Positions 4,954 to 61,162 of a stretch of DNA of 64,000 nt are shown here, piece by piece (within the stretch, counting starts at the first letter, position 1; each line of letters opens with the position of its first letter). Position numbers and translations under genes: made by a program. The notes beneath the pieces are model-generated. The model was given only the letters and a program-made list of their open reading frames with translations, was not told the DNA's origin and ran no database searches. This DNA is from an uncultured Thermoleophilia bacterium (lineage in GTDB: Bacteria > Actinomycetota > Thermoleophilia > UBA2241), in assembly GCA_963707855.1 (NCBI GenBank), contig CAVPRQ010000013.1, positions 327,301-391,300 of the forward strand, read 5' to 3'.

Positions 4954-5383
4954 TCACGGCTCGCAGGCGGCGCCCTTCTCGAAGCGCATCTTGCACATCG
5001 CGTACTCCTCGGGCACGGCGATCGGGTAGTCGCCGGTGAAGCAGGCGCGGCAGAACTGCGTCTCGGGGAGGCCGGTGCTGGCCTGGAGGCCTTCGAGCGT
5101 GAGGTAGTGCAGGGTGGTGGCGCCGACCTTGCGGCGGATCTCGTCGACCGTCATGTCGGCGGCGATGAGCTCGGCGCGGGTCGCCATGTCGATGCCGTAG
5201 AAGCAGGGCCACTTGATGGGCGGCGAGCTGATGCGCAGGTGGACCTCCCTGGCCCCGGCGCCCATCAGCATGTCGACGAGCTTGGTGGTCGTGTTGGCGC
5301 GCACGATCGAGTCGTCGACGACCACGAGGCGCTTGCCCCTGATGACCGAGGTGAGCGGGTTGAGCTTCATGCGGATGCCGCGC
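4954..5383 (-). pseudogene. purF: 5'-truncated duplicate of the purF 3' end (PRTase domain only)
   Basis: Colinear with 14473-14902 at constant offset 9519; about 15 substitutions counted by eye; VVVDDSIVR motif; no glutaminase domain. Confidence 0.9.
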
Positions 5384-5462
5384 ACCTTCGCGTCGTAGGC
5401 TTACCCCTGCAGCTTGCAGGTGGCGCGCGGGAAGCCGGGCAGGCGCCCCGTCCACGTGTCTC

Positions 5463-6608
5463 TCACGCCTGCCTCGCGGCCAGCGTCACCTCGACGCTGA
5501 GGGGCCGCCCGTCCCTCAGCAGGTCGACCGTGACCGTCTCACCGGGCTCGCGTTGGACGATCTGCGCGGCCAGTTCCTCGGAGCTCGCGATCGAGTGCCC
5601 GTCGATGGCGGTGATCACGTCGCCGCCCACGACGAACGGCTGTCCCTGCAGAAGCACCTCACGGCTGCCGCCGCGGATGTCGGCCTTGGCCGCGGGACTG
5701 CCGGGCGTCACGCGGACGACCAGGAGGCCGTGGTCCGCCTCGACGCCCAGCACGTGGGCCAGCTCGGCGGTCAGGCCGTGTCCTGAGGCGCCGAGGTAGG
5801 CGTAGCTGACTTCGCCCGTCGCCTTGAACTGGTCCATGACCCGCACGGCGGTCTCGATCGGGACGGCGAAGCCGAGACCCTGGCTGCCGCCCGATTGGGT
5901 CATGATCTGCGTGTTGACACCGATCACCTCGCCCGCGGAGTCGATCAGCGGTCCGCCAGAGTTGCCCGAGTTGATCGCCGCGTCCGTCTGGATGCCGTTC
6001 GGAATGACCATGCCGTTCGGCGACGTGAGGTTGCGGCCGGTGGCCGAGACGATGCCGGACGTGACCGTGAACGAGAGGCCCAAGGGGTTGCCGATGGCGG
6101 TCACCGGCTCGCCCACGCGCAGGCTCGCGGACTCGCCCAGCGGCAGCGGGTCGAGCGACGGCGCGTCCTCGGGGTCGATCTTGAGCAGTGCCACGTCGCT
6201 GTTCTCGTCGCTGCCGACGAGTTCGGCGCTCACCTGTGCGCTCGCCGGGTCCGTGCCGGACTGCGTCCTGAACACCACGACGATCGCCGAGGCGTCCCAC
6301 CCGTCCCTGGTCACGACGTGGGCGTTGGTGATGATGTCGCCCTCGCGCGACACGAGGAAGCCGGACCCCAAGCCCGACCCGCCTCCCGCCGCGTCGGCCT
6401 GCGGGAAACTGGCGCGCACCTCGACGACGCCCGCGGCGCTCTGCTCGAACACCTCCATGGGAGTCAGGGTGCCCCTCGACGCGGTGCTCTCGCCGCCGCC
6501 GCCGGCCGTCACGGCGACGACGCCGGTCACGATGAGGACCAGGGCGACGAGCGCGGCGATGAGCGCCCCGGCGAGGAGCAGCGCCACTCTGGATGTCGAT
6601 CTGCTCAC
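5463..6608 (-). CDS. HtrA/DegP-like serine protease with PDZ domain
   Basis: ITNAHVV, DVALLK, IQTDAAINSGNSGGPL; N-terminal TM helix. Confidence 0.92.
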   Translation of the reverse strand: MSRSTSRVALLLAGALIAALVALVLIVTGVVAVTAGGGGESTASRGTLTPMEVFEQSAAGVVEVRASFPQADAAGGGSGLGSGFLVSREGDIITNAHVVTRDGWDASAIVVVFRTQSGTDPASAQVSAELVGSDENSDVALLKIDPEDAPSLDPLPLGESASLRVGEPVTAIGNPLGLSFTVTSGIVSATGRNLTSPNGMVIPNGIQTDAAINSGNSGGPLIDSAGEVIGVNTQIMTQSGGSQGLGFAVPIETAVRVMDQFKATGEVSYAYLGASGHGLTAELAHVLGVEADHGLLVVRVTPGSPAAKADIRGGSREVLLQGQPFVVGGDVITAIDGHSIASSEELAAQIVQREPGETVTVDLLRDGRPLSVEVTLAARQA

Positions 6609-6690
6609 GCCGCCTCCTTCTCGTGCACGTCACAGGTCACATGCGTGCTGTAGCGGGCTCGTCGGGGCGGCGACAGCGTGCCGTCCGCCA

Positions 6691-8256
6691 TCAGAACGAC
6701 CAGAAGACGGGCACGACGAACGTGCCGACGAGGCCGAAGAGGAGCAGCAGGGGCAGACCGAGCTTCCAGTAGTCGCCAAAGCGGTACCCGGCCGGGTCCA
6801 TCACCATGAGGTTGCCCGGCGTGGCGACCGGGGTGATGAAGGCGGCGGCGGCGAACACGGCGACGGCCATCAGCACGGGCCGGCCGGAGACGCCCATGTC
6901 GGTGGCGGCCGCGAGGGCGATCGGAAACACGATGAGGGCCGTCGCCATGTTGCTGATCAGCTGGCCGAGCCCGGCGGTGATCACGAAGAGGCCGGCGAGC
7001 AGGGCGTAGGGCCCCGCGTCGCCGACGAGCGCGACGAGGCCGTCGGCGAGCTTGGTGGCGGCCCCGCTCTCGACCATGCCCGCGGAGAGCGCCATCATGC
7101 CCCCGACGAGGATGATCGTGGTCCAGTTGACGCCGCGATAGGCCTGCTCCACCGTGACGACGCGCAAGAGGACCATGGCAAGGGCCGCGAGCAGGCCCGC
7201 GACGGCGGCGGGCACCAGGCCGGTCGCGAGCAGGACGATCATGGCCGCGAGTACGGCGATCGCGCGCCACGCGCCCGGACCGAGCGGCACCGCCTGGCGC
7301 CGCACGAGCGCAGGCTCGTCGACGGCGATGACGTTCGGGTCCTGCAGGCCGTCCTCGAGAGCGTCCCAGGGGCCTCGGAGCAGCAGGGTGTCGCCGGCGC
7401 ACAGGTGCCACGCGCCATCCACGTCCTGGCCTTTGTGCTGAACGGCAGCCACGACCAGCTTGCCGCTCTCCGTAGTCATCCCCGGGTACACCGCGTCGCC
7501 GATGTAGTCCGAGCGCGGCGGGATCATCACTTCGGCGGCCCCGAGCTGCCTGGTCATGAGCGCGGGGTCGCCGCCGTCCTCGAGTCCATAATGCTCGGCG
7601 AGCACGGCGGCATGTCCGCTGAAGTCGCGCAGGGCCTGGCGGGGCCGGCGGGTCGGCAGAAGCCGGCCGCCAAGGAGGACGACGAGGACGACCGTCCCGG
7701 CGACGAGCGGCACGCCGGCGAGCGTGAAATCGAAGAGGCCGAAAGCCCCGAGCCCTGCTTCTTCCGCGTAGTCCGAGACCAGCAGGTTGACCGGTGAGCC
7801 GGTGAGGAGCAGCAGCGAGCCGGCGTGCGCGGCGAAGGCGAGCGGCATGAGCAGCTCTGACGGCGAGCGCCGCGCGCGCACGGCGATCACGACGCCCACC
7901 GGCACCAGCGCGGCTACGGCGCCGTTGACGCTGATGAGCGCCGTCAGGAGCGCCGCCAGCAGCATCACCAGCACCAGAAGCCGGCTGCGGCCTTCCCCGA
8001 CGCGCGCCATGACCTGCTCGCCCGCCCATGCCGTCACTCCCGTCGCGTCAAGGGCCTCGCTGACCACGAAGAGCGCGGCGATGAACAGCACCGTCGGGTC
8101 GCCGAAGCCCGCGAACGCCTGCTGGAGGTCGATCACCCCGGTCGCCCACAACGAGAGCGCCACGCCGAGGGCGACGATCGCCACCGGGACGCGGTCCCAG
8201 ATGAAGACGCCGACCGTCACCGCCAGGACGGCGAACGTGATGGCGGTGTCGCTCAC
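6691..8256 (-). CDS. SLC13 family permease with TrkA-C domain
   Basis: LLLTGSPVNL, LISNMATALI, TPVATPGNLMV, YRFGDYWKLG. Confidence 0.9.
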   Translation of the reverse strand: MSDTAITFAVLAVTVGVFIWDRVPVAIVALGVALSLWATGVIDLQQAFAGFGDPTVLFIAALFVVSEALDATGVTAWAGEQVMARVGEGRSRLLVLVMLLAALLTALISVNGAVAALVPVGVVIAVRARRSPSELLMPLAFAAHAGSLLLLTGSPVNLLVSDYAEEAGLGAFGLFDFTLAGVPLVAGTVVLVVLLGGRLLPTRRPRQALRDFSGHAAVLAEHYGLEDGGDPALMTRQLGAAEVMIPPRSDYIGDAVYPGMTTESGKLVVAAVQHKGQDVDGAWHLCAGDTLLLRGPWDALEDGLQDPNVIAVDEPALVRRQAVPLGPGAWRAIAVLAAMIVLLATGLVPAAVAGLLAALAMVLLRVVTVEQAYRGVNWTTIILVGGMMALSAGMVESGAATKLADGLVALVGDAGPYALLAGLFVITAGLGQLISNMATALIVFPIALAAATDMGVSGRPVLMAVAVFAAAAFITPVATPGNLMVMDPAGYRFGDYWKLGLPLLLLFGLVGTFVVPVFWSF

Positions 8257-8260
8257 AGGC

Positions 8261-9932
8261 CTACGTGCCGAGACCCCACGGGAGGCCGAGCAGATACCAG
8301 GCCAGGAAGAAGACGGTCCACGCGACGGTCAGGATGACGAAGAAGGGCAGCATCAGCGCGATGACCGTCCCTATGCCCGAGCGGCGGTCGTAGCGCGAGG
8401 CGAAGACCACGATGAGCGGGAAGTAGGCCATGATCGGCGTGACGATGTTCGAGGGCGAGTCGCCGACCCTGTAGGCGGCCAGGACCGCCTCGGGCGCTAT
8501 GCCAAGGCGCATGAAGAGCGGGATGAAGATCGGCGCGAGGAGCGCCCACTTGGCGATCGCCTGCGGCATGATGAAGTTGGACAGGAGCGAGACCACGATC
8601 ACCGCGACCAGAAGCCAGGCGCTCCCGATGTCGGCGCTCTCGACGAGGTCCCCCAGGCGGACGGCGGCAACCTGCGGGACGTTGGAGTAGTTGAAGTAGG
8701 CGATGAACTGGGCGATGAGCAGGAAGAGCAGGAGCAGCCCAGCCAGTCCGGCCCACGACTTGGTGACGGCGCCGATCACGTCGGTGCTGCTCTTGAGCGT
8801 GCCGGCGCCGCGGCCGTAGCCGAGGCCCGCCGCCAGGAAGAGCAGCGCGATGATCACGATCAGGCTGTCCATGAACGGCGACGTGCCGATGATGCTGCCC
8901 GTGTCGGGGTCGCGCAGCGGGCCGCCGGGCGGCGCGGTGAGCAGGGCGACGACGGCGACGGCCGCGAGCAGGCCGAGCCCGGCCCAGCGCAGCCCCCGCT
9001 TGTCGGCCTCGGGCGTGATCTCAGTGGTCTCCTCCGGCGCGTCGTCGCGCTCCTGGCCGGCCGGCGCCAGCGAGACGTCGTACGCGCCCAGGCGCGGCTC
9101 CACGAGGCGCGCGCTGACGAGCGAGAGGACGATGGTGACGAAGACCGTGGAGGCGATGCCGAACCAGAGGTTCGCGGTGAGGTCGATGGCGATCGATGGG
9201 TCGACGAGACCGATGGCCTCGTTCGTGATCTCGGTGAGGACCGCGTCGATGGGCGTGATCAGGAGGTTCACGCCGAAGCCGCCGGCGACGCCGGCGAAGG
9301 CGGCGGCGATGCCGGCCAGGGGGTGCCGCCCCACGCTCTTGAACGCCGCGGCGCCGAGGGGGATGAGCACGAGGTAGCCCGCGTCCGACGCGATGCTCGA
9401 GATGACGCCCAGGAACACGATGATGTACGTCAGGGCGCCGACGGACGAGACGGCGACCAGCTTACGGATGAGCGCCGCGATGAGTCCCGAGAGCCTCGGC
9501 TACGCCGACGCCGATCATCACGATGAGGATGATCCCCATTGCCGTGAAGCCCATGAAGTTGCTCACGAACGAGGTGAAGAGAAAGCGGATGCCGTCGGCC
9601 GAGAGCAGGCTCTGGACCTCGGCCGTCTCCGTGACGACGGCGTAGTCCTCCGCGTCGGCGCGCTCCCCCGGCAGCCTCTCCCCCGGCATCACCGAGCCGC
9701 CGATGTCGTACTCCTCGACCGCGACGGGGGGTGGCTTTATCACCTCGTAGGTGGCGCTTACGCCGGCCCACGCCAGGATCTGCGAGAGCACGATGATGAT
9801 GACGATGAGGGCGAGGAAGAGGAGGGCGGGATGTGGGACCTTGTTGCCCACCCGCTCGATCCCGTCGAGCATGCGCTGCAGGATGCCGCCCTTCGGCGCG
9901 TCCCGGGGCAGCGTTGCGGCGTCGTCACTCAT
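8261..9932 (-). CDS. AbgT family transporter (frameshifted)
   Basis: IERVGNKVPHP, GRHPLAGIAAAFAGVAGGF, AAYRVGDSPSNIVTP. Confidence 0.9.
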
Positions 9933-47817: not shown

Positions 47818-47959
47818 GCCGTCCCTCCCTGACATCCTCCGTCTGCGCCTCAGCGTACCGCGCCCGCGCTGAGGGCGCTACAGGTCGAGTCGCGGCCGAG
47901 GCGCGGACGGCGGCCCTCACGCGGGAGGCGTCGTCGCCCTCCGAGCTCGCGCGGAAGCC

Positions 47960-49280
47960 TCAGTCCGCCGCCTCGATCTGGGCCCACAGGTCGAAGAACG
48001 TGGGGCACGTCTTGCGCACGCAGGCGGGGTCTTCGATGACCACGCCGGGGACGCGGAGGCCGAGCACACTGAAGCTCATCGCGATGCGGTGGTCGCCGTG
48101 CGGGTCGATGGCGGCGCCGTGCGCCGGGCCCGGCAGGACACGAAGGTGAGTCCGGGCCCGACTCCGTGCGCACCCCGACCCGGCGCAGGCCCTCCTCCAC
48201 GGCGGCGATGCGGTCGGACTCCTTGAGGCGGACGTTGGCGATGCCCGTCATCGTGACCGGGGACGAGGCGAACGGCGCGATCGCGGCCAGGGTCATGAAC
48301 GTGTCGGGGATGTCGGCCATGTCGACGGCGAGGCCGGCGAGGGGCGCCGGCGCCGCAGGCGTCCCGGCGCCCCTCGCGACGCCATGAGGGCCTTCGACGG
48401 TGAGCCCCGATTCGTCGTCGGTCACGCGGCAGCCCATCGCCTCGAGGACGTCGACGAAGCGGACGTCGCCCTGCAGCCCGCCGCGGCGCCGCAGGCCCGG
48501 CACGGTCACCCGTCCGCCCGTGACCGCCGCGGCGGCGAAGAAGTACGACGCCGTCGAGGCATCCGGCTCCACGGCGTACGTCCGGGCACGATAGGTCGAT
48601 GGCCGCAGCCGGAAGGCGGCGTAGGCGTCGCGCTCGGCCTCGACCCCGAACTGCCCCATCATCGCCAGGGTCATGTCGACGTAGGGACGGCTGACAAGCC
48701 CGTCGACGGCGATCGTCAGAGGTCCGCGGGCGAGCGGCGCCGCCATGAGCAGGGCCGAGACGAACTGGCTCGAGACGTCCCCGGGCAGGCTGACGGTCCC
48801 GCCGGCGAGGCCGCCGGCGACGACCGTCACCGGGAGCGAGGTCGCGCCGGCCGGCTCGAAGACCGCTCCCTGGGCGCGCAGCGCCTCGAGGAGCGGCCCC
48901 ATCGGCCGGCGCCTGAGCTGTCCGGAGGCGTCGAGCGTGAAGCGGCCGTGACCGGCGGCGCAGGCGGCGAGCAGAAAGCGGGCCGCCGTGCCGGCGTCGG
49001 CGCACCAGACGGTCGCCGCCGAAGACGGGATGCGGCCGGCCGCCCCGCGCACGCGCAGGCGGCCGGCCGCGTCCTCGGAGATCTCGAACCCCAAGCTGCG
49101 CAACCCGTCGACGAAGGCCGCCGTGTCGTCCGCGACGAGCGCTCCGCGCAGGGTCGAGTCGCCATCCGCCAGGGCGGCGAGCAGCAGCGCCCGGTTGGTG
49201 ACGCTCTTCGAGCCGGGCACGCGGACGACGACGTCGAGGCCGGGCCGCGCCGGCGTTATCGCTCGCGGCGCGACGGTCAT
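47960..49280 (-). CDS. aroA: EPSP synthase (frameshifted near C-terminus)
   Basis: PGSKSVTNR, AGTAARF, RRPM, SSQFVS, RLKESDR, DHRIAM, KTCP. Confidence 0.95.
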
Positions 49281-49319: not shown

Positions 49320-49677
49320 CTACAGCTCCGAGACCACGTAGTCGGCGAGGGCCTGGATCTGCGCCTCGGTAAGGTCGCCGGAGAACGACGGCATCCCGCC
49401 GCCGCCGCTCGCTGATCTGCTCGGCGATGCCGCCGACGTTGTCCTCGCCGCGAAGATCGGGGCCGTTGCCGCCGCTGCCGTCGGCTTGGTGGCAGCCGGC
49501 ACAGTTATCGGCGTAGAGCGCGGCGGGGTCGTCCGCGGCCTGCGTCGGCGTGCTCGCCGGCGAGGTCGCCGCCGGCGTCGAAGCAGGCGTCGTCTCATCG
49601 GTCGTCTCCTCGCCGCAGGCGGCGAGGCCGACCACGGCAGAGAGCACGAGGGCGAGCAGGAGCAGGTTGCGAAGCAT
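49320..49677 (-). CDS. Monoheme lipoprotein cytochrome c (frameshifted)
   Basis: Lipobox LAAC; CAGCH; distal GMPSF. Confidence 0.88.
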
Positions 49678-50884: not shown

Positions 50885-51786
50885 TCAGGGCCGCGGCGGC
50901 TTGGGGGTCGCTGCGATCTCCAGGCCGATCAGGGTGCGGAAGGCATCGGGATCGTCGGTGTCGCGTTCGTCGACGAGGTACGTCTCGCTGAACCGGCCGG
51001 TCAGCGGCAGGTCGTGTTCGGCGACCCAGGCGATCAAGCAGGCCGACGTCGTGGACATCTCACCATACGGACCGGGGTGCACAGCGGTGGCGACCGTGGC
51101 GGGCGGTGTGTGGCGAACGGCGGCGGGAGTGTCTCGCCTGCGTGCGGAGAAGTCGACCGGCGCGCTCACCTCGACGCGGTAGTCGTGTGTCAGGTCGAAG
51201 TCGGCGAAGTAGGTGGCCGTCTCGCGGCCGAGCGGTTCCAGCCTGTGGGCGTCGAGGAGGCCGGCAAGTCGATCGAGCAGCCGGTCGACCGTCGCCTCAT
51301 GGGTCTCGTGCGTGCACTGCGCGGCACAGACGAGGTCGACGTGCGCCGCGACGTCACGCACGGCTATCTCCGTCGACAGACCTCGCGAAGGATCGGCGTT
51401 GATGTTCTCAGATGGTCGAGCAGCCGGTCGGTCGCGGCGAGCTCCTCGGCAAGGTGCAGCCTGCGTCGCGCAAGGAGCACGGGCAGCGGCGTCGCTTCAT
51501 CGGCGCGCAACGCTGCCGCCACGTCGCGGAGCGGCACGCCCACCGAGCGCAGCAGCCGGATCGTCTCGGCGGTGCGCACCTGCTGCAGGCTGTAGTAGCG
51601 GTAGTGGGTCTGCGGGTCGATGTGGGCGGGTCGCAGAAGCCCGTAGCGTTCGTACGTCTTCAACGCCTTGCGCGTCAGCTGGGTGAGGCGGGCGAAGACG
51701 CCGATCGGCAGACGGCGGTCTCCCGCGGGAGCGGGCTGCCGGGCTCGACTACCATGGACGTCTGGGAGCCGGTGCCGGTAGTCCAT
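50885..51786 (-). CDS. MerR family regulator with GyrI-like effector domain (BmrR/BltR type; frameshifted near 51365)
   Basis: IGVFARLT..LKTYERYGLLRPAHIDPQTHYRYYS; HPGPY, ETYL. Confidence 0.88.
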
Positions 51787-51882
51787 CGCCGGCCCGCGAT
51801 CTGGCGCCGCGATCTCGTAATGATGCCAAACGAGCGTCCACTGACCTGCCTAGGCTGGCTCGGGAACGTGACAGCTCCTCTG

Positions 51883-51913
51883 ATGCTACGCCTTCGGTCG
51901 GGGCCGAGGTCAA
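51883..51913 (-). promoter_or_regulatory. MerR-type promoter TTGACC-N19-TAGCAT
   Basis: 19-bp spacer containing dyad TCGG-N6-CCGA, upstream of the merR gene. Confidence 0.7.
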
Positions 51914-51920
51914 GCGCGAA

Positions 51921-51966
51921 GGCGGGCGGGGCGGGCGGCGTCGTGACGCCGCCCGCCCCGCCCGCC
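51921..51966 (-). terminator. Terminator hairpin after the flavoprotein gene
   Basis: Perfect ~21-bp GC stem ggcgggcggggcgggcggcgtc / gacgccgcccgccccgcccgcc. Confidence 0.75.
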
Positions 51967-51994
51967 AAACAGCCCAGGCACGGGAAGGCTAGGG

Positions 51995-53970
51995 CTACGC
52001 CTGCGTCGACTGCTCCTTCGCCGCCAGCACTGCCGCGTCGATCGCCGAGTCGACGTAGGCCTGGGAGCGGCGGTCGGTGTTGGCGAAGGTGATCTTGCCG
52101 AACGGCTTCGCGGCAACGTCGCCGGGCAAGGGGACCGTCGGGGTAGAACGCCTTGTCCCACGGCATGGCGTACTCGAACGAGTAGCCGTGCGCCCAGCGG
52201 TTGATCGGTGATCGCCTGGATGTCCTCGGCCGGGTCGAAGCCGGCGGAGCCCAGCGTGCGCGCCATGAGGTCGCGCATCTTCCGCTCCATGTCCTCGAAG
52301 CTCATCTTGTAGAGGTCCTGGCGGCCGACCTTCACGCCCTCGCGCGGCGGCATGCCCAACTCCGCCGGTGTGGCGTTCCAGTGCAGGAGGATCGGCTCGT
52401 CGGGGTCGCTCGGGTGTTCGTAGCCGCCCATGCTCACCGGCATGTCGAGGGAGAAGCCCAGCCAGAACGACCCCGGACCGACGGTGCGGACGTCCTGGAT
52501 CTTCAGCTTCTCGAAGGCGCGCCAGTTCGAGATCAGCGTGTTGGCGTAGACCAGCGGGATGCGGGTCATGTACTGGGCCGCCTGCTTCTGCTCATCGGGG
52601 TAGTCCTCGACGATGTAGGGCAGCATCGAGTACCAGCAGGCCATCACGGCGCCCTTGCCCTTGACGTTGCGCAGCTCGCCGTTCTGGACGTACGTGACCT
52701 CCACCCCGTCGTCGGTGTTGCGCACCTTCACGACGGGACTGCACAGTCGGATCCGCGTACGGTTCCCCGGATTGGTCGAGACGGGCGTAGTCGAGGCGCG
52801 CGAGCACCTGGTCCTCCATCGTGCGGCCGGGCAGGGCCTCGGGGACCAGCTGACGCACCAGCAGGCGAGGGATGCCATGACAGCCGTCGGGGAAGTGGTA
52901 GATGTAGGGTTCCTCCTCCCAGAACTGCTTCTCGGTCGGCGCGTTGTACTTGTAGGGCTTCGCCCAGCTGAGCCCCAGGCCGTCGAAGCCGGGATACCGT
53001 CGGCCCAGGCGTCGATGGCGCCGATGCCGTCGGCGCCGTAGCCCCAGTACCCGCTCGACGCCTTGGAAAGGTACTTCACGGCGTCGGGATCGACCTTGGC
53101 GAAGTCGGTCATCCACTGCGTGTAGGTGATCTCGCTCAGCTTCGCCCACTTCTCCTCCTGCGACATGCCGGGGAGCCAGTCCGCGGGGCTCTCGCTCAGC
53201 ATGGCGAGGTCCTTCTTGCCCTGCTCCGACATCGGGGCGTCCTTGAGGAAGTCGGGGTCGTATGCCGAGCATGTCGGGAGTCCTGATCGCGACATAGTCG
53301 CTGCCCCACGTCTCCTTGTCGAAGAAGGTGGCCGAGTTGACGAGCCCGAGCGTCTCGTAGAACTTCTGGTCGTAGTAGTCGAAGAAGGGCTCGAGCTTGA
53401 CGCCGATCTCGTCGAGGACGGCCTTCGCCCCCGGGCTGAAGGTCTTGGGATGGTCGATCGACTGCGTGCCGCCGTAGCCGATGATCGGCGGCCGAAGCGC
53501 CGCGACCACGGGCGTGTACTCGTTGCGCCGCGCGTGGCCGCCGAAGTCGTCGTGGTTCTCGAGTACCAGGACGCGGGCGTCGGGGTTGTCGCGGGCGTAC
53601 AGGTAGGCGGCGGCGAGGCCGCTGATGCCGGCGCCGACGACGACGAGGTCGTAGCTCTCGCCGGTGTCCTCGGCGTCCTTCTGGCCCTCCCAGAAGGTGC
53701 CGTCCCGCAGTGCGTGGGGGACCGCGTACGCGGGGTTGATGCTGCCCCGCAGCCCGGTCAGCGCCGGCGGATACGGCGCCCAGCGCCGCCGTCTCCAGCG
53801 TGCCCGTCTCCCCGCAGCCGGCCAGGACGGCCGCCAGATCCGCCGGCGACCGATCCGGCGAGGATGGCCCCGCCGACGGTGAGGGCGGCGCCGTCGAGGA
53901 AGTCGCGGCGCGTGATCTTGCGGTCCATCCCCAGTTCTCTGTCTCTCTTCGCGTCAGGCGACTCGGACAT
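51995..53970 (-). CDS. Tat-exported FAD oxidoreductase, spermidine dehydrogenase (SpdH)-like (several frameshifts)
   Basis: LGMDRKITRRDFLDG, YPPALTGLRG, VVVGAGISGL, ENHDDFGGHARRNE, HFPDG, RWAHGYSFEY, AYVDSAID. Confidence 0.85.
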
Positions 53971-53982
53971 CGCTCCCCCTTG

Positions 53983-54557
53983 TCAGTACGCATCGAAGAT
54001 CGTTGACGTGTGACGCCCGTCCGCCGGGGTCGTGCAGGCGGGACTGCGGGGGCCATTCCGGGATCGTCGGCGGAGGCGCGGTGGTCGCTCCGCGCCGGCC
54101 GATATCGCGGCGACGATGGTGAGGGCCAGCAGCAGAGCCACGGCCACCAGGGCGATCACTCTGGGCGCCACTCTCAGCGGGCGCGTGCGCCCGAGGAGCC
54201 TTCGTCTTGGCGGGCGCCGGTCGACGAACGGGACGGCGAGAAGGAGCACGACGAGCAGCGACGGCACCAGGACGGTGCCGACGCCTCGAAGCTGCCCTTG
54301 AAGTACTTGAGGAGCTGGAAGAGCCAGAGGAAGTACCACTCCGGCCGCGGGGTGAAGCCGGCGGCGTCGCGACTCGCGGTCTCCTCGAGCGGGGCCTTCG
54401 TCAGCGCCGCCACGACGATGAGGGCGATCAGCATGGCCAGGGCGACCGAGGCCTCGTAGACGAAGAGGTCGGGGAAGAAGCGCCTCTGGCTCGCGGCCGT
54501 GCCGTGGGTCTTGCAGCGGCTGCGCGTCGTGACGCCGCTGCTTGTCGGTCGTTGCAC
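53983..54557 (-). CDS. Cytochrome b6f/bc subunit IV (frameshifted, end uncertain)
   Basis: FFPD, PRPEWYFL, LAVPFVDR; no CxxCH. Confidence 0.85.
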
Positions 54558-55240
54558 TCACAGCGGTGTGGCGATGCCTTGACGGCGCACCATGGCGAAA
54601 TGGAGCAGCAGCCCGACACGAGGAGGGCCGGCAGGACGAAGACATGGGCGGCGTAGAAGCGCAGAAGGGTGAGGGCGCCGAGCTCGGGGCCGCCGCGCAG
54701 CAGGTCGGCGATGAAGGGGCCGACGAAGGGCACCGAGTCGGCCATGTTGATGCCGACGTTGGTCGCCCAGTACGCCTTCTGGTCCCAGGGCAGCAGGTAG
54801 CCGGTGAAGCCGAAGGCCAGCACCGTGATCAGCATCAGGACGCCGACCACCCAGTTGAGCTCGCGCGGCTTGCGGTAGGCGCCGTGCACGAACACCCTGA
54901 CCATGTGGACGAGGACGAGCCCGACCATGGCGTAGGCGCTCCAGCGGTGCAGGTTGCGGACGATCGAACCGAGCAGCAGAGAGCTCTCGATCCAGGCGAC
55001 GGACGCCCGCGCGTGATCGGGCGAGGGCACGTAGAAGAAGGCGAGGACGACGCCGGTCACGACGAGCACGACGAACGCGAAGAAGGTCATGCCGCCGAAG
55101 CAGTAGTACCAGGTGATGCCCTCCGGCACCGGCTTGCCGAGCACCCGGGCCAGCGGCCCGCGCACCTCGAGGCGCTCGTCGAGCGCGTCCAAGCTCCGCG
55201 CGAGCGGACCGGCGGCGGGTCGCTCCGCCGGGATGCTCAC
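54558..55240 (-). CDS. Cytochrome b6-type short cytochrome b (frameshifted near C-terminus)
   Basis: YYCFGG, RNLHRWSA, HMVRV, TGYLLPWDQ, AHVF, LHFAMVRRQGIATPL. Confidence 0.92.
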
Positions 55241-55796
55241 GACTTCGCCCTTCTCGCAGGCGGCCGACGTAGAGCACGCCGTCCTCCACCTTGACGTCGT
55301 AGCGATCGAGCGGACGCGGCGGGGGGCCGTCGGTGACCTCGCCGCTGTCGTCGTACACGGCGCCGTGGCAGGCGCAGAGGAACTCGCGTGACGTCGAGCT
55401 CCAGCTCAACGGACATCCGAGGTGCGTGCAGCGGGCGTCGAAGACGGTGAACGCGCCGCCGCCCTCGCACACCAGGAACACCGGCGTCTTCTGGTCCTCG
55501 GGTGGCAGGTAGGCGTCCGTCACTGTCCGAGTGAAGGTCGTCGGGACGACCGTACCGGCGACCGACAGATCGGGCTGCCCCGGCTCGCGCGGAGTCGATG
55601 CTGCCGACAGGGGTCCAGTCGGCGTTCTCGTCACGCGACGCGGAGGCAACGAACGGTGTCAGTCCGAGCACCCCGAGTATCGCCGCGACTGCGCCGGCGG
55701 CGAGACCCCGATCCATGCCAGGAAGCGCCTCCGGGTCATGGGCGGCTCGACGCGCGCAGCATCGGGGTTCTCGGCGTCATCGCCTTGTCGATCCAT
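55237..55796 (-). CDS. Rieske [2Fe-2S] protein (frameshifted)
   Basis: Tat motif MTRRRFL; CTHLGC and CACHG; GPPPRPL. Confidence 0.9.
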
Positions 55797-55855
55797 CGAG
55801 CCTCGCTTCCGCGCTCGTCCGGTGTTGGGGCGGGATTGCGGCCGGTGCGCCATTG

Positions 55856-55886
55856 AGGCTAGAGATGGCCCTAGGGGTCAGGTCAA
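55856..55886 (-). promoter_or_regulatory. MerR-type promoter TTGACC-N19-TAGCCT
   Basis: 19-bp spacer with palindrome CCCTAGGG, 60 bp upstream of the Rieske ATG. Confidence 0.72.
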
Positions 55887-56054
55887 GCAGGGGAGGGATG
55901 GAGTCGTCCCCGGCCGTCGCCAGAGCCCGTTTCAGGGTCTGCGATCAGAACTGGCGGCAGCGTCCCCGCGCGCTGCTGGTTGCGCGACGCCAAGAGCGGC
56001 TCGGCGGCAAGGATTGCGGGACCTGGGTTCAGCGCGCGGCAGAAACGGGCGGCG

Positions 56055-57360
56055 TCAGAACTCGAGCTTCTCCAGCCGCCCGAAGATGACCTCACGCCCG
56101 GCCATGTACTGGTCGGGGTCCATGGCGGCGTCGACCTCCTGCGGGCTCATCACGGCCATCGCCTCGGCGTTGCCCTTGATGAGCCCGCCGAAGTCGACGC
56201 CCTCGCGCCAGGCCTGCATGGCCGCGTCCTGGACGACGCGGTAGGCGTCGTCGCGCAGCATGCCCTTGTCGACGAGGGCGAGGAGGACGGCCCCGCTGAA
56301 GACGAGGCGCTGCGACTGGCCGAGGTTGGCCAGCATGCGCGCCTCGTCGACGACCAGGCCGTCAATCAGCTTCGTCGTCTTCTGCAGCATGTAGTCGAGC
56401 AGGATGCAGCGAGTCGGGGAAGACGATGCGCTCGGCCGAGCTGTGGCTGATGTCGCGCTCGTGCCAGAGGGCGACGTTCTCCATGCCGACCAGCGCGTTG
56501 CCGCGCAGCACGCGGGCGCAGCCGGCCATGCGCTCGCTGAGGATCGGGTTGCGCTTGTGCGGCATCGCCGAGGAGCCCTTCTGGCCCTTGCCGAAGGCCT
56601 CCTCGGCCTCGCGCACCTCGGTGCGCTGCAGGTGGCGGACCTCGACGGCGAACTTCTCGAGGCTCGCGCCGACGATCGCCAGGGCGCTCAGGAAGGCGGC
56701 GTGACGGTCGCGCTGCACGACCTGGTTCGAGATCGGCTCGAAGCCGATGCCGAGCTCGTCGCAGACGAGCTCCTCGACGCGCGGGTCGATGTTGTTGTAG
56801 GCGCCGACCGCGCCGCTCAGCTTGCCGACGGCGGCCAGCGTCGGTGACGCGGCGCAGGCGCTCGAGGTGGCGCTGCGACCTCGAAGGCCCACATGCCGAG
56901 CTTCATGCCGAAGGTGATCGGCTCGGCGTGGATGCCGTGCGTGCGGCCCACCTGGACCGTGTCGCGGAACTCGAAGGCGCGCCGCTTGAGGACGGTCCCG
57001 AGCTCGACGCAGGTCCTTCTCGAGGATCCCCCCGGCGCGCTTGATCTGCAGGGCGAGGCCGGTGTCGAGCATGTCGCTCGAGGTCATGCCGTAGTGGACG
57101 TACTTGCTGGCCTCGCCGACGTACTCGGCGACGTTGGTGAGGAAGGCGATGACGTCGTGGTTCGTCGTCGCCTCGATCTCGGCGACGCGGGCGACGTCGA
57201 ACGCCGCCTTCGCCTCGATCTCGGCGACCGCCCCGTCGGGCACCTTGCCGAGCTTGTTCCACGCCTTGACGGCGGCGATCTCGACCTCGAGCCAGGCCTG
57301 CATCTTCGCCTGCTCGGTCCACACGGCGCCCATCTCGGGCAGGGTGTAGCGCTCGATCAT
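56055..57360 (-). CDS. purB: Adenylosuccinate lyase (frameshifted)
   Basis: [36 protein letters not shown]. Confidence 0.96.
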
Positions 57361-59670: not shown

Positions 59671-61008
<1,338 letters not shown>

Positions 61009-61162
61009 GCGCCCTCCTCCGTCCCCAGACTGTGCGCGCGACGCGTTCTTCGCGGCGCGCACGGAAGCGACCGGATCGGCCGGCGCGTCCCTCCGTCGGC
61101 GCCGGCCCACAACGCCCGTGAGTCTATCGGCGGCGCCGACGCCGCGTAAACGATGAGTGTCG

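Follow-up and report, generated by a model that had tools for sequence, protein, structure and literature searches.

Most descriptions of Rieske/cytochrome b complexes include a haem c partner; other partners are few, and most of these were deduced from genomes. A haloarchaeal Rieske/cytb-Nar cluster is described as having no cytochrome c gene, and a periplasmic b-type cytochrome was proposed as the shuttle for its Rieske protein (PMC3509893). In anammox/planctomycete complexes, the gene of a short cytochrome b shares a bc-type operon with that of a large nucleotide-binding oxidoreductase (PMC5600118). Spermidine dehydrogenase of Pseudomonas aeruginosa (PaSpdH) contains flavin adenine dinucleotide (FAD) and a surface-exposed haem b with ligands His54 and His562. 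Spermine reduces this haem through FAD; cytochrome c, ferricyanide and 2,6-dichlorophenolindophenol (DCPIP) act as acceptors in vitro, and direct electron transfer from the enzyme to an electrode sets in at -0.14 V vs Ag/AgCl (PMC12564564). Here we describe an operon that joins a split Rieske/cytochrome b complex to a predicted SpdH-family flavocytochrome b. It lies on the minus strand at 51996-55886 of a 64,000-nt stretch of DNA from an uncultured Thermoleophilia bacterium; this whole stretch is called the window, and all coordinates refer to it. The open reading frames (ORFs) of the window give the gene order Rieske [2Fe-2S] protein (~55237-55796), short b6-type cytochrome b of ~226 aa (54558-55240), subunit IV-like protein (~53954-54561) and SpdH-family flavoprotein of ~655 aa (51996-53970). 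An earlier interpretation made from the letters of the window alone (the sequence-only reading) had named the same four genes in the same order, and all are present on the minus strand.

The last gene encodes a protein with a twin-arginine translocation (Tat) motif (ITRRDFLDG), a lipobox (LAGC) and an FAD motif (VVVGAGISG). A segment of it matches PF13450 (E = 4.8e-12); beyond this Rossmann motif, no NCBIfam model for the SpdH-like family was found. The gene is interrupted by at least seven frameshifts in the window, and homology was traced through an intact relative, P0002, which is 88% identical to the window protein over P0002 residues 332-519. P0002 aligned with PaSpdH (7D9I_A; PDB 7D9F-7D9J) from end to end (E = 4.3e-135, residues 19-650 on 3-618), at about 45% identity as counted by eye on the printed alignment. 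A database search returned 119 proteins at E <= 0.001 among 364 candidates, most of them ~640-660 aa long, and many SpdH-like relatives are labelled 'spermidine dehydrogenase' by automatic annotation. PaSpdH His54 and His562 aligned with H86 and H592 of P0002, and both positions are invariant in the SpdH-like alignment; counted by group, 21 of 21 members of the clade of the window protein have both, as do 28 of 29 others. In the window, they sit in AVPHALRDG and NRWAHGY. The kinship with SpdH suspected in the sequence-only reading is therefore upheld, both by the full-length match via P0002 and by 82% identity between the window protein and its orthologue at the metagenome locus L104, and the haem ligands that it had singled out for checking are kept in window and clade alike. 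As judged by homology, the flavoprotein is a member of the SpdH family, predicted to bind haem b and to oxidize an amine.

While full-length homology, FAD fold, both haem b ligands and the twin-arginine motif are shared with PaSpdH (7D9F-7D9J), the window protein differs from it in the lipobox Cys after the Tat signal, in clade-specific residues around the haem ligands and in the location of its gene inside a Rieske/cytochrome b operon. The lipobox Cys is found in 21 of 21 clade members and in only 1 of 29 others, a distribution consistent with a protein anchored to the outer surface of a monoderm membrane. Thirty-two residues are clade-specific (conserved in the clade and rare outside it). 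Ten of these fall at positions 597-635, just after the second haem ligand, where ~2 would be expected from an even spread, and the clade-specific P85 adjoins the first ligand; this placement would fit a remodelled haem face. 'Spermidine dehydrogenase' is an automatic label on the relatives, and the substrate of the clade is putative.

The product of the first gene carries a Tat motif (TRRRFLAW) and the cluster-binding boxes CTHLGC (box I) and CACHGAVY (box II), and a segment of it matches PF00355 (E = 8.6e-11). The cluster-binding Cys and His columns are invariant in the Rieske alignment. Box II reads without Ser, as previously noticed. Gly and Phe at two positions of this box predict a low-potential Rieske cluster (PMC3509893). 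Two genomes of other genera that will recur below, G015 and G014, have Gly-x-Phe there, and the window and L104 have Ala-x-Tyr; by its residues, the window box appears intermediate in relation to the Gly/Phe low-potential type. The cytochrome b matches PF00033 (E = 2.3e-45) and has four His at the positions of two b-haem ligand pairs. It also contains YYCFGG, an instance of CxGG, which is described as the haem cn motif of cytochrome b (PMC5600118). The claim that this protein carries a haem ci/cn motif thus holds for the motif as read, and haem attachment is predicted from it. Subunit IV contains RPEWYFLW, which includes PEWY, the motif of the Qo site, and no CxxCH, and has an extra C-terminal helix and a Pro-rich tail. 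Its intact orthologues, P0122 and L104:1454-2071, score above the cut-off of PF00032; neither contains PF00034 or CxxCH, both of which are present in the proteins of sister lineages. No cytochrome c gene was found within the operon in the window or in G015. These results agree with the earlier claim of an operon devoid of c-type cytochrome.

The best NCBIfam models for the window cytochrome b were ExtP (229 bits, cut-off 290) and cytochrome b6 (223 bits, cut-off 325). For the ExtP/ExtQ pair (NF040969/NF040970), the intact G015 cytochrome b, P0121, reached 252 bits on ExtP, also below 290, and the ExtQ score was 20.8 bits against a cut-off of 150. The b6f iron-sulfur subunit models of NCBIfam gave scores below their cut-offs on the window Rieske protein. 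Actinobacterial QcrCAB occurs in the same lineage (G015) but has an unsplit QcrB and a dihaem QcrC; its QcrB model (NF050120, cut-off 500) gave 124.5 bits for the window protein and 135.8 for P0121, and the corresponding model gave 29 bits for the Rieske protein against a cut-off of 275. In architecture the operon resembles Bacillus QcrABC, with a Rieske protein, a short CxGG cytochrome b, a separate PEWY-containing subunit IV and a low-potential-type box II without Ser. Unlike QcrC and the sister lineages, in which subunit IV is fused to a haem c domain, the operon described here has no haem c domain, and an FAD/haem b gene comes next.

In G015, three different Rieske/cytochrome b complexes are encoded in one genome (L087, L097 and L101). 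Besides the SpdH-linked module, it holds a QcrC-QcrA-QcrB locus, with a QcrB above the NF050120 cut-off (534 bits, cut-off 500), and another split complex, in which the Rieske box contains Ser and the cytochrome c is a dihaem protein. An actinobacterial lineage, as assumed in the sequence-only reading, is therefore probable, and the SpdH-linked module is an accessory third complex. In the window's own genome, only the cytochrome b of the operon was found, and cytochrome bd is present. The haem-copper oxidase gene of this genome lies at the very start of its contig. Since the Qcr genes adjoin the haem-copper oxidase gene in G015 and G012, the Qcr locus may have been lost in an assembly gap. Taken together, the operon is best explained as encoding an accessory menaquinol-oxidizing Rieske/cytochrome b complex of the split type, with a b6-like cytochrome b and a subunit IV.

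The nearest other relatives of the special cytochrome b indicate what the operon may have lost. They are found in G063, G112 and G098, genomes from other classes of the same phylum, and are 67-70% identical to P0121; none of these three is among the same-phylum genomes found with an SpdH-like gene. In their operons (L128, L129 and L130, respectively), genes for a Rieske protein, a 216-aa cytochrome b and a subunit IV with haem c follow a gene for a NapC/NirT-like multihaem protein (PF03264), and an MtrC-like multihaem protein is encoded last. The sister subunit IV proteins carry a C-terminal PF00034 domain (37-40 bits, cut-off 21.3), the haem c domain to which the Rieske cluster passes its electrons. 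In the alignment, subunit IV of the window clade keeps the membrane part, including the extra C-terminal helix, and ends in a short Pro-rich tail where the sisters have CxxCH and a Met-bearing stretch. Because the sister proteins carry the haem c domain, its absence here is a secondary loss, and by the same comparison the flavocytochrome b gene occupies precisely the place of the haem c parts. In these comparative data the replacement is clean: a domain present in the sisters is lost and a flavocytochrome b gene follows. The layout of the sister operons is one that we take to be shared with Bacillus QcrABC, and these operons may represent an outward electron-transfer module in monoderm members of the phylum. 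An acidobacterial origin of the special cytochrome b, hinted at by one database name, was considered and rejected. None of 301 sampled acidobacterial genomes had this cytochrome b at E <= 1e-70, and in five acidobacterial genomes with SpdH-like genes the cytochrome b proteins are at most 50% identical to the special type.

The pairing of the two parts is not confined to this contig. Six close metagenome contigs carry an SpdH-like gene 83-100% identical to P0002. Five of the six have the full order of Rieske, cytochrome b, subunit IV and SpdH-like genes, and the sixth (L102) begins inside subunit IV; L104 and L105 are near-copies among them. G015, which belongs to another genus of the same family, has an intact four-gene operon whose SpdH-like protein is 58% identical. 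Uniqueness of the synteny to this contig, which would have refuted the sequence-only reading, is excluded by both sets. At the SpdH-like locus L109 (G440:C27, 6708-11338), the gene is in two pieces ~2.6 kb apart with a 699-aa ORF (7698-9797) between them on the same strand, which may reflect an insertion or a rearrangement. Co-occurrence was examined in 61 genomes, the window's own (G000) and 60 relatives. An SpdH-like gene was detected at E <= 1e-20 in three of them, G000, G014 and G015. P0121 matched its own genome at 100%, G000 at 84% and G014 at 77%, and the next best match was 55%. The three genomes with the special cytochrome b are thus exactly the three with the SpdH-like gene; they represent three genera, and twelve other genomes of the window's own genus are without both. 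Since related genomes are not independent, this is a pattern and not a statistic.

In a tree of 45 SpdH-like proteins, the linked and co-occurring ones fall in one 19-row clade with a Shimodaira-Hasegawa-like approximate likelihood ratio test (SH-aLRT) value of 98. Linked rows occupy both sub-branches of this clade, and the unlinked protein of G419 lies outside it. Several further SpdH-like and cytochrome b matches pair up by the length of the longest contig at their source (8266, 23706, 5177 and 4283), which suggests additional linked cases, one of which would lie just outside the 19-row clade. Among more distant homologues, the best 80 of 580 confirmed genome loci (mostly Acidobacteriota, ~45% identity) had no Rieske, cytochrome b or subunit IV gene within a flank of up to 7 kb. 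Among 400 sampled genomes of the same phylum, seven besides the window's own hold an SpdH-like gene. Six of these seven (all except G088) yielded seven SpdH-like loci, none with Rieske/cytochrome b neighbours. Beside the six other same-phylum SpdH-like loci (leaving aside two partial hits in G088), there were neither CxxCH proteins nor a recurring partner.

The window itself offered one candidate for a missing electron carrier. A frameshifted gene at 49320-49677 on the minus strand encodes a lipoprotein monohaem cytochrome c, recognized by its lipobox (LAAC) and its CAGCH motif, and the sequence-only reading had suggested it as the carrier of the complex. Orthologues with 66% and 54% identity are present in G005 and G012, respectively, both of which are without the module. 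G015 and G014, which have the module, gave only weak matches to other cytochromes, and the gene is absent from the related loci searched. G005, at 97% completeness, has no cytochrome b and no haem-copper oxidase match. Present in genomes without the module and not found in G015 or G014, this cytochrome is rejected as a module-specific carrier, and the suggestion is not supported.

None of the four operon genes has an open frame in the window. When the intact L104 proteins were aligned to the window DNA with frame changes allowed, at least 13 frameshifts were counted in 3.9 kb, or about one per 300 bases. At least three of these break the Rieske gene (near 55707 and 55587, plus one at the 3' end), one the cytochrome b gene (near 54617), three the subunit IV gene (near 54492, 54282 and 54100) and seven the SpdH-like gene. 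After frame correction, no internal stops remained, and identity to L104 was 85% for cytochrome b, 82% for the flavoprotein and 65-66% for the Rieske protein and subunit IV. Short-read contigs from three sediment runs of one study carry a strain ~96% identical to the window. Among the indels listed, these contigs differ from the window by single bases at 52206, 52774 and 52996, by a net one base at 53256-53271 and by a compensating pair at 53488/53502, and these are the sites predicted by the L104 frameshift alignment. Likewise, aroA, purB and purD (47850-49280, 56055-57360 and 59671-61110) switch frame within a well-conserved protein. Indel errors seem to run through the whole window at roughly one every few hundred bases, the pattern of a long-read assembly that was not polished.

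A decaying pseudogene cluster with real frameshifts would account for the sheer number of breaks, and the contigs that restore the frames come from a strain ~96% identical and not from the same strain, which leaves real decay a small probability. We nevertheless consider decay very improbable. The corrected cytochrome b and SpdH-like proteins are free of internal stops and 82-85% identical to intact relatives, housekeeping genes are broken alike, and a source genome of 28 contigs scored at 69% completeness is what would be expected of an error-rich long-read assembly. Because independent contigs carry indels at the predicted sites, the operon frameshifts are most likely assembly errors and not decay. 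Automated annotation deserves caution here, as these errors split all four genes in the window.

The genes of the operon are tightly packed. In the intact operons of G015 (L087) and L104, consecutive genes overlap by 4, 4 and 17 nt, which argues for translational coupling, and in the window the TGA of the Rieske gene (55239-55237) overlaps the GTG start of the cytochrome b gene. The earlier description of a tight four-gene run is thus correct for the intact relatives, but it made no mention of the frameshifts in the window. A perfect 21-bp GC hairpin at 51921-51966, 30 nt past the SpdH-like stop on the same strand, has a folding energy of -64.9 kcal/mol (z = -5.5, equalled by 0 of 200 shuffles) and is terminator-like, in line with the single terminator proposed before. 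It has no T-run and is missed by a consensus terminator scan, because that scan demands one. The single promoter also proposed was not confirmed. A consensus scan of 51300-56400 found no sigma-70-like site, and one candidate pair, unverified, was picked out by eye on the minus strand at 55856-55886 (TTGACC at 55886-55881, a 19-nt spacer and TAGCCT at 55861-55856).

Membership in the families, a lost haem c domain, a gene order that is kept and co-occurrence of the two parts are what the analysis shows, and from these we infer a role for the flavoprotein in the complex. The haem b of the SpdH-like enzyme would replace haem c as the partner of the Rieske protein, a proposal that we offer tentatively and at slightly less than an even chance. 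The former place of haem c would be taken by an enzyme of the SpdH family, exported by Tat and anchored by a lipid, that holds FAD and a bis-His haem b exposed at its surface, and this haem b would be the redox partner of the Rieske cluster. Electrons from quinol (via the Qo site) and electrons from a polyamine-like secondary amine (via FAD) would meet at this haem and leave it for a high-potential acceptor, for example an oxidase or a membrane-bound cytochrome. The choice of haem b follows from the comparison: all c-haem has been lost, the complex has been kept, a Rieske protein needs a partner, and the one redox protein that remains in the operon, the flavocytochrome, has an exposed haem b. 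Four points of this scheme are putative: that haem b touches the Rieske protein, which way the electrons flow, what the substrate is and where the electrons end. The forward direction, from quinol through Rieske to haem b, is usual for such complexes, and by analogy the sister operons and the haloarchaeal Nar cluster suggest the same. With forward flow, haem b would be a shared node that also takes amine electrons, and an onward acceptor would have to exist. Whether the flavocytochrome b is a true third redox subunit, in place of cytochrome c1, f or QcrC, is a further question, and an affirmative answer is possible but stands somewhat below an even chance.

Several observations weigh against this proposal. 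The contact between the two proteins is putative; a complex predicted from residues 62-194 of P0120 (the Rieske head) and residues 60-657 of P0123 (the SpdH-like protein), with haem and FAD, gave scores of 0.01 and 0.00 against a mark of 0.32, and these carry no weight either way. By our own conversion, the PaSpdH onset corresponds to about +0.06 V vs the standard hydrogen electrode (SHE), which is presumably lower than the usual potentials of menaquinol-type Rieske clusters. With a haem b of such low potential, transfer from Rieske to haem b would be slightly uphill, and the opposite direction would be rather favoured. No acceptor downstream of haem b was identified, the nearby cytochrome c not being specific to the module. 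Elsewhere, SpdH homologues dispense with a complex of this kind, which is encoded nearby at 0 of 80 and 0 of 7 loci. In G014, the parts are unlinked: the SpdH-like gene has a divergent permease gene as its neighbour on a 4-kb contig, and the Rieske, cytochrome b and subunit IV genes of the special type form a three-gene operon on a 3.3-kb contig, with a fur-like gene after it. Finally, all verified linked loci come from one family-level lineage, so that the linked cases are not independent.

The same observations bear on other ways in which electrons might flow. A polyamine could be oxidized outside the cell and its electrons passed through FAD and haem b to Rieske, with a reverse Q cycle, driven by proton-motive force, reducing menaquinone. 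This is the direction that the sequence-only reading had in mind when it linked amine oxidation to the quinone pool. It agrees with the known chemistry of SpdH, in which amines are oxidized and electrons exit via haem b (PMC12564564). Up to three Rieske/cytochrome b complexes occur in one organism (G015), so that reverse flow could be the task of one of them, as has reportedly been proposed for one of two bc1 operons in Acidithiobacillus ferrooxidans. By our conversion and the usual Rieske potentials, the PaSpdH haem b appears lower in potential than a typical Rieske cluster, so that the step would be downhill. However, the sister complexes, with their multihaem partners, resemble quinol oxidases that send electrons outward, and no sequence feature marks the complex as one that runs in reverse. 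By our own bookkeeping, moreover, the route costs energy with no net gain over direct hand-over to the high-potential chain. Rieske/cytochrome b complexes are quinol oxidases and their reversal needs proton-motive force, which makes this the mechanistically harder direction, and we regard it as unlikely. Electrons might instead run from quinol through Rieske, haem b and FAD to an external oxidant in a kind of respiration, with the flavocytochrome as a terminal reductase. The direction is natural for such complexes, and the patchy distribution of the module fits an accessory respiratory function. There is precedent in the haloarchaeal Rieske/cytb-Nar cluster (PMC3509893) and in the Nap and Tor reductases of Campylobacter, described as served by such a complex (PMC6195509). 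All characterized SpdH enzymes are dehydrogenases, though, and the neighbouring genes suggest no candidate oxidant. Judged by the potentials, imine reduction by menaquinol would be unfavourable. Of the directions considered, this one has the weakest chemical basis, and it is improbable.

The two parts may also exchange no electrons at all and be neighbours by descent, perhaps co-regulated, each with its own acceptor. The separated genes of G014, the single lineage of all verified linked loci, the solitary SpdH homologues elsewhere and the other c-type cytochromes encoded in these genomes would all be accommodated. Less easily accommodated are the 4- and 17-nt overlaps with the translational coupling that they imply, and a gene order kept across 58% protein identity. 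Both parts are held by exactly the same 3 of 61 genomes, including one in which they are unlinked, and the c-haem parts have all been lost where the flavocytochrome b is present. Independent function of the parts is, on balance, a doubtful explanation, and haem b as the Rieske partner is the reading that we carry forward.

Comparison with the known systems shows how far this partner would be new. The haloarchaeal cluster is similar in its lack of a cytochrome c gene, its low-potential-type Rieske protein and its Tat-exported redox enzyme; as that source describes it, a molybdenum nitrate reductase there works with a separate b-type cytochrome, whereas haem b and FAD are here predicted in one polypeptide (PMC3509893). 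The chemistry differs also, with an amine oxidase fold known for oxidation here and reduction by Nar there. The anammox/planctomycete partners have FeS-binding cysteines and an NAD(P) domain and accompany another cytochrome b subfamily (PMC5600118); they are unrelated to SpdH and have neither Tat export nor haem b. Modules with non-c partners are therefore already known as a kind, and an SpdH-family partner is new to it. Searches of open-access papers and preprints gave no sign, among the papers listed, of a Rieske/cytochrome b complex paired with SpdH; the pairing seems undescribed, and the sequence-only reading likewise knew of no description.

If haem b does contact the Rieske cluster as proposed, the module would give a testable answer to the question of which acceptor serves SpdH-type enzymes in monoderm bacteria. 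It would add a new module type to the diversity of complex III, and it would provide a natural example of a single haem shared between a substrate dehydrogenase and a Q-cycle enzyme. If, further, the flavocytochrome is a third subunit, this would be the first bc-type complex with a catalytic flavoenzyme as Rieske partner. Extracytoplasmic amine oxidation would then be wired directly to the Q-cycle machinery, possibly reversibly, and the arrangement would point to the physiological electron partner of SpdH-type enzymes in bacteria without soluble cytochrome c.

The genes that flank the operon vary among loci. Upstream of the G015 operon (L087 6594-8168) lies a gene for a saccharopine dehydrogenase family protein, which was considered as a link to polyamines and rejected. 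It scores 164 bits on the carboxynorspermidine synthase model (cut-off 800), the family has 5-10 copies in each of five genomes, a close orthologue is shared with G014 only, and no gene of this family is near the operon in the window or the metagenome loci. Directly downstream of the operon, and on the same strand, the window has a gene at 50885-51786 (minus strand) for a MerR-family regulator with a C-terminal effector-binding-like part. The same gene is present in the close metagenome contig L102 (2838-3695) and not in L104 or G015. Downstream of the L104 operon, two genes lie within 5118-6950 and 7271-8710 (minus strand); one encodes a solute-binding protein, and the second resembles, by eye, the trimethylamine methyltransferase (MttB) family.

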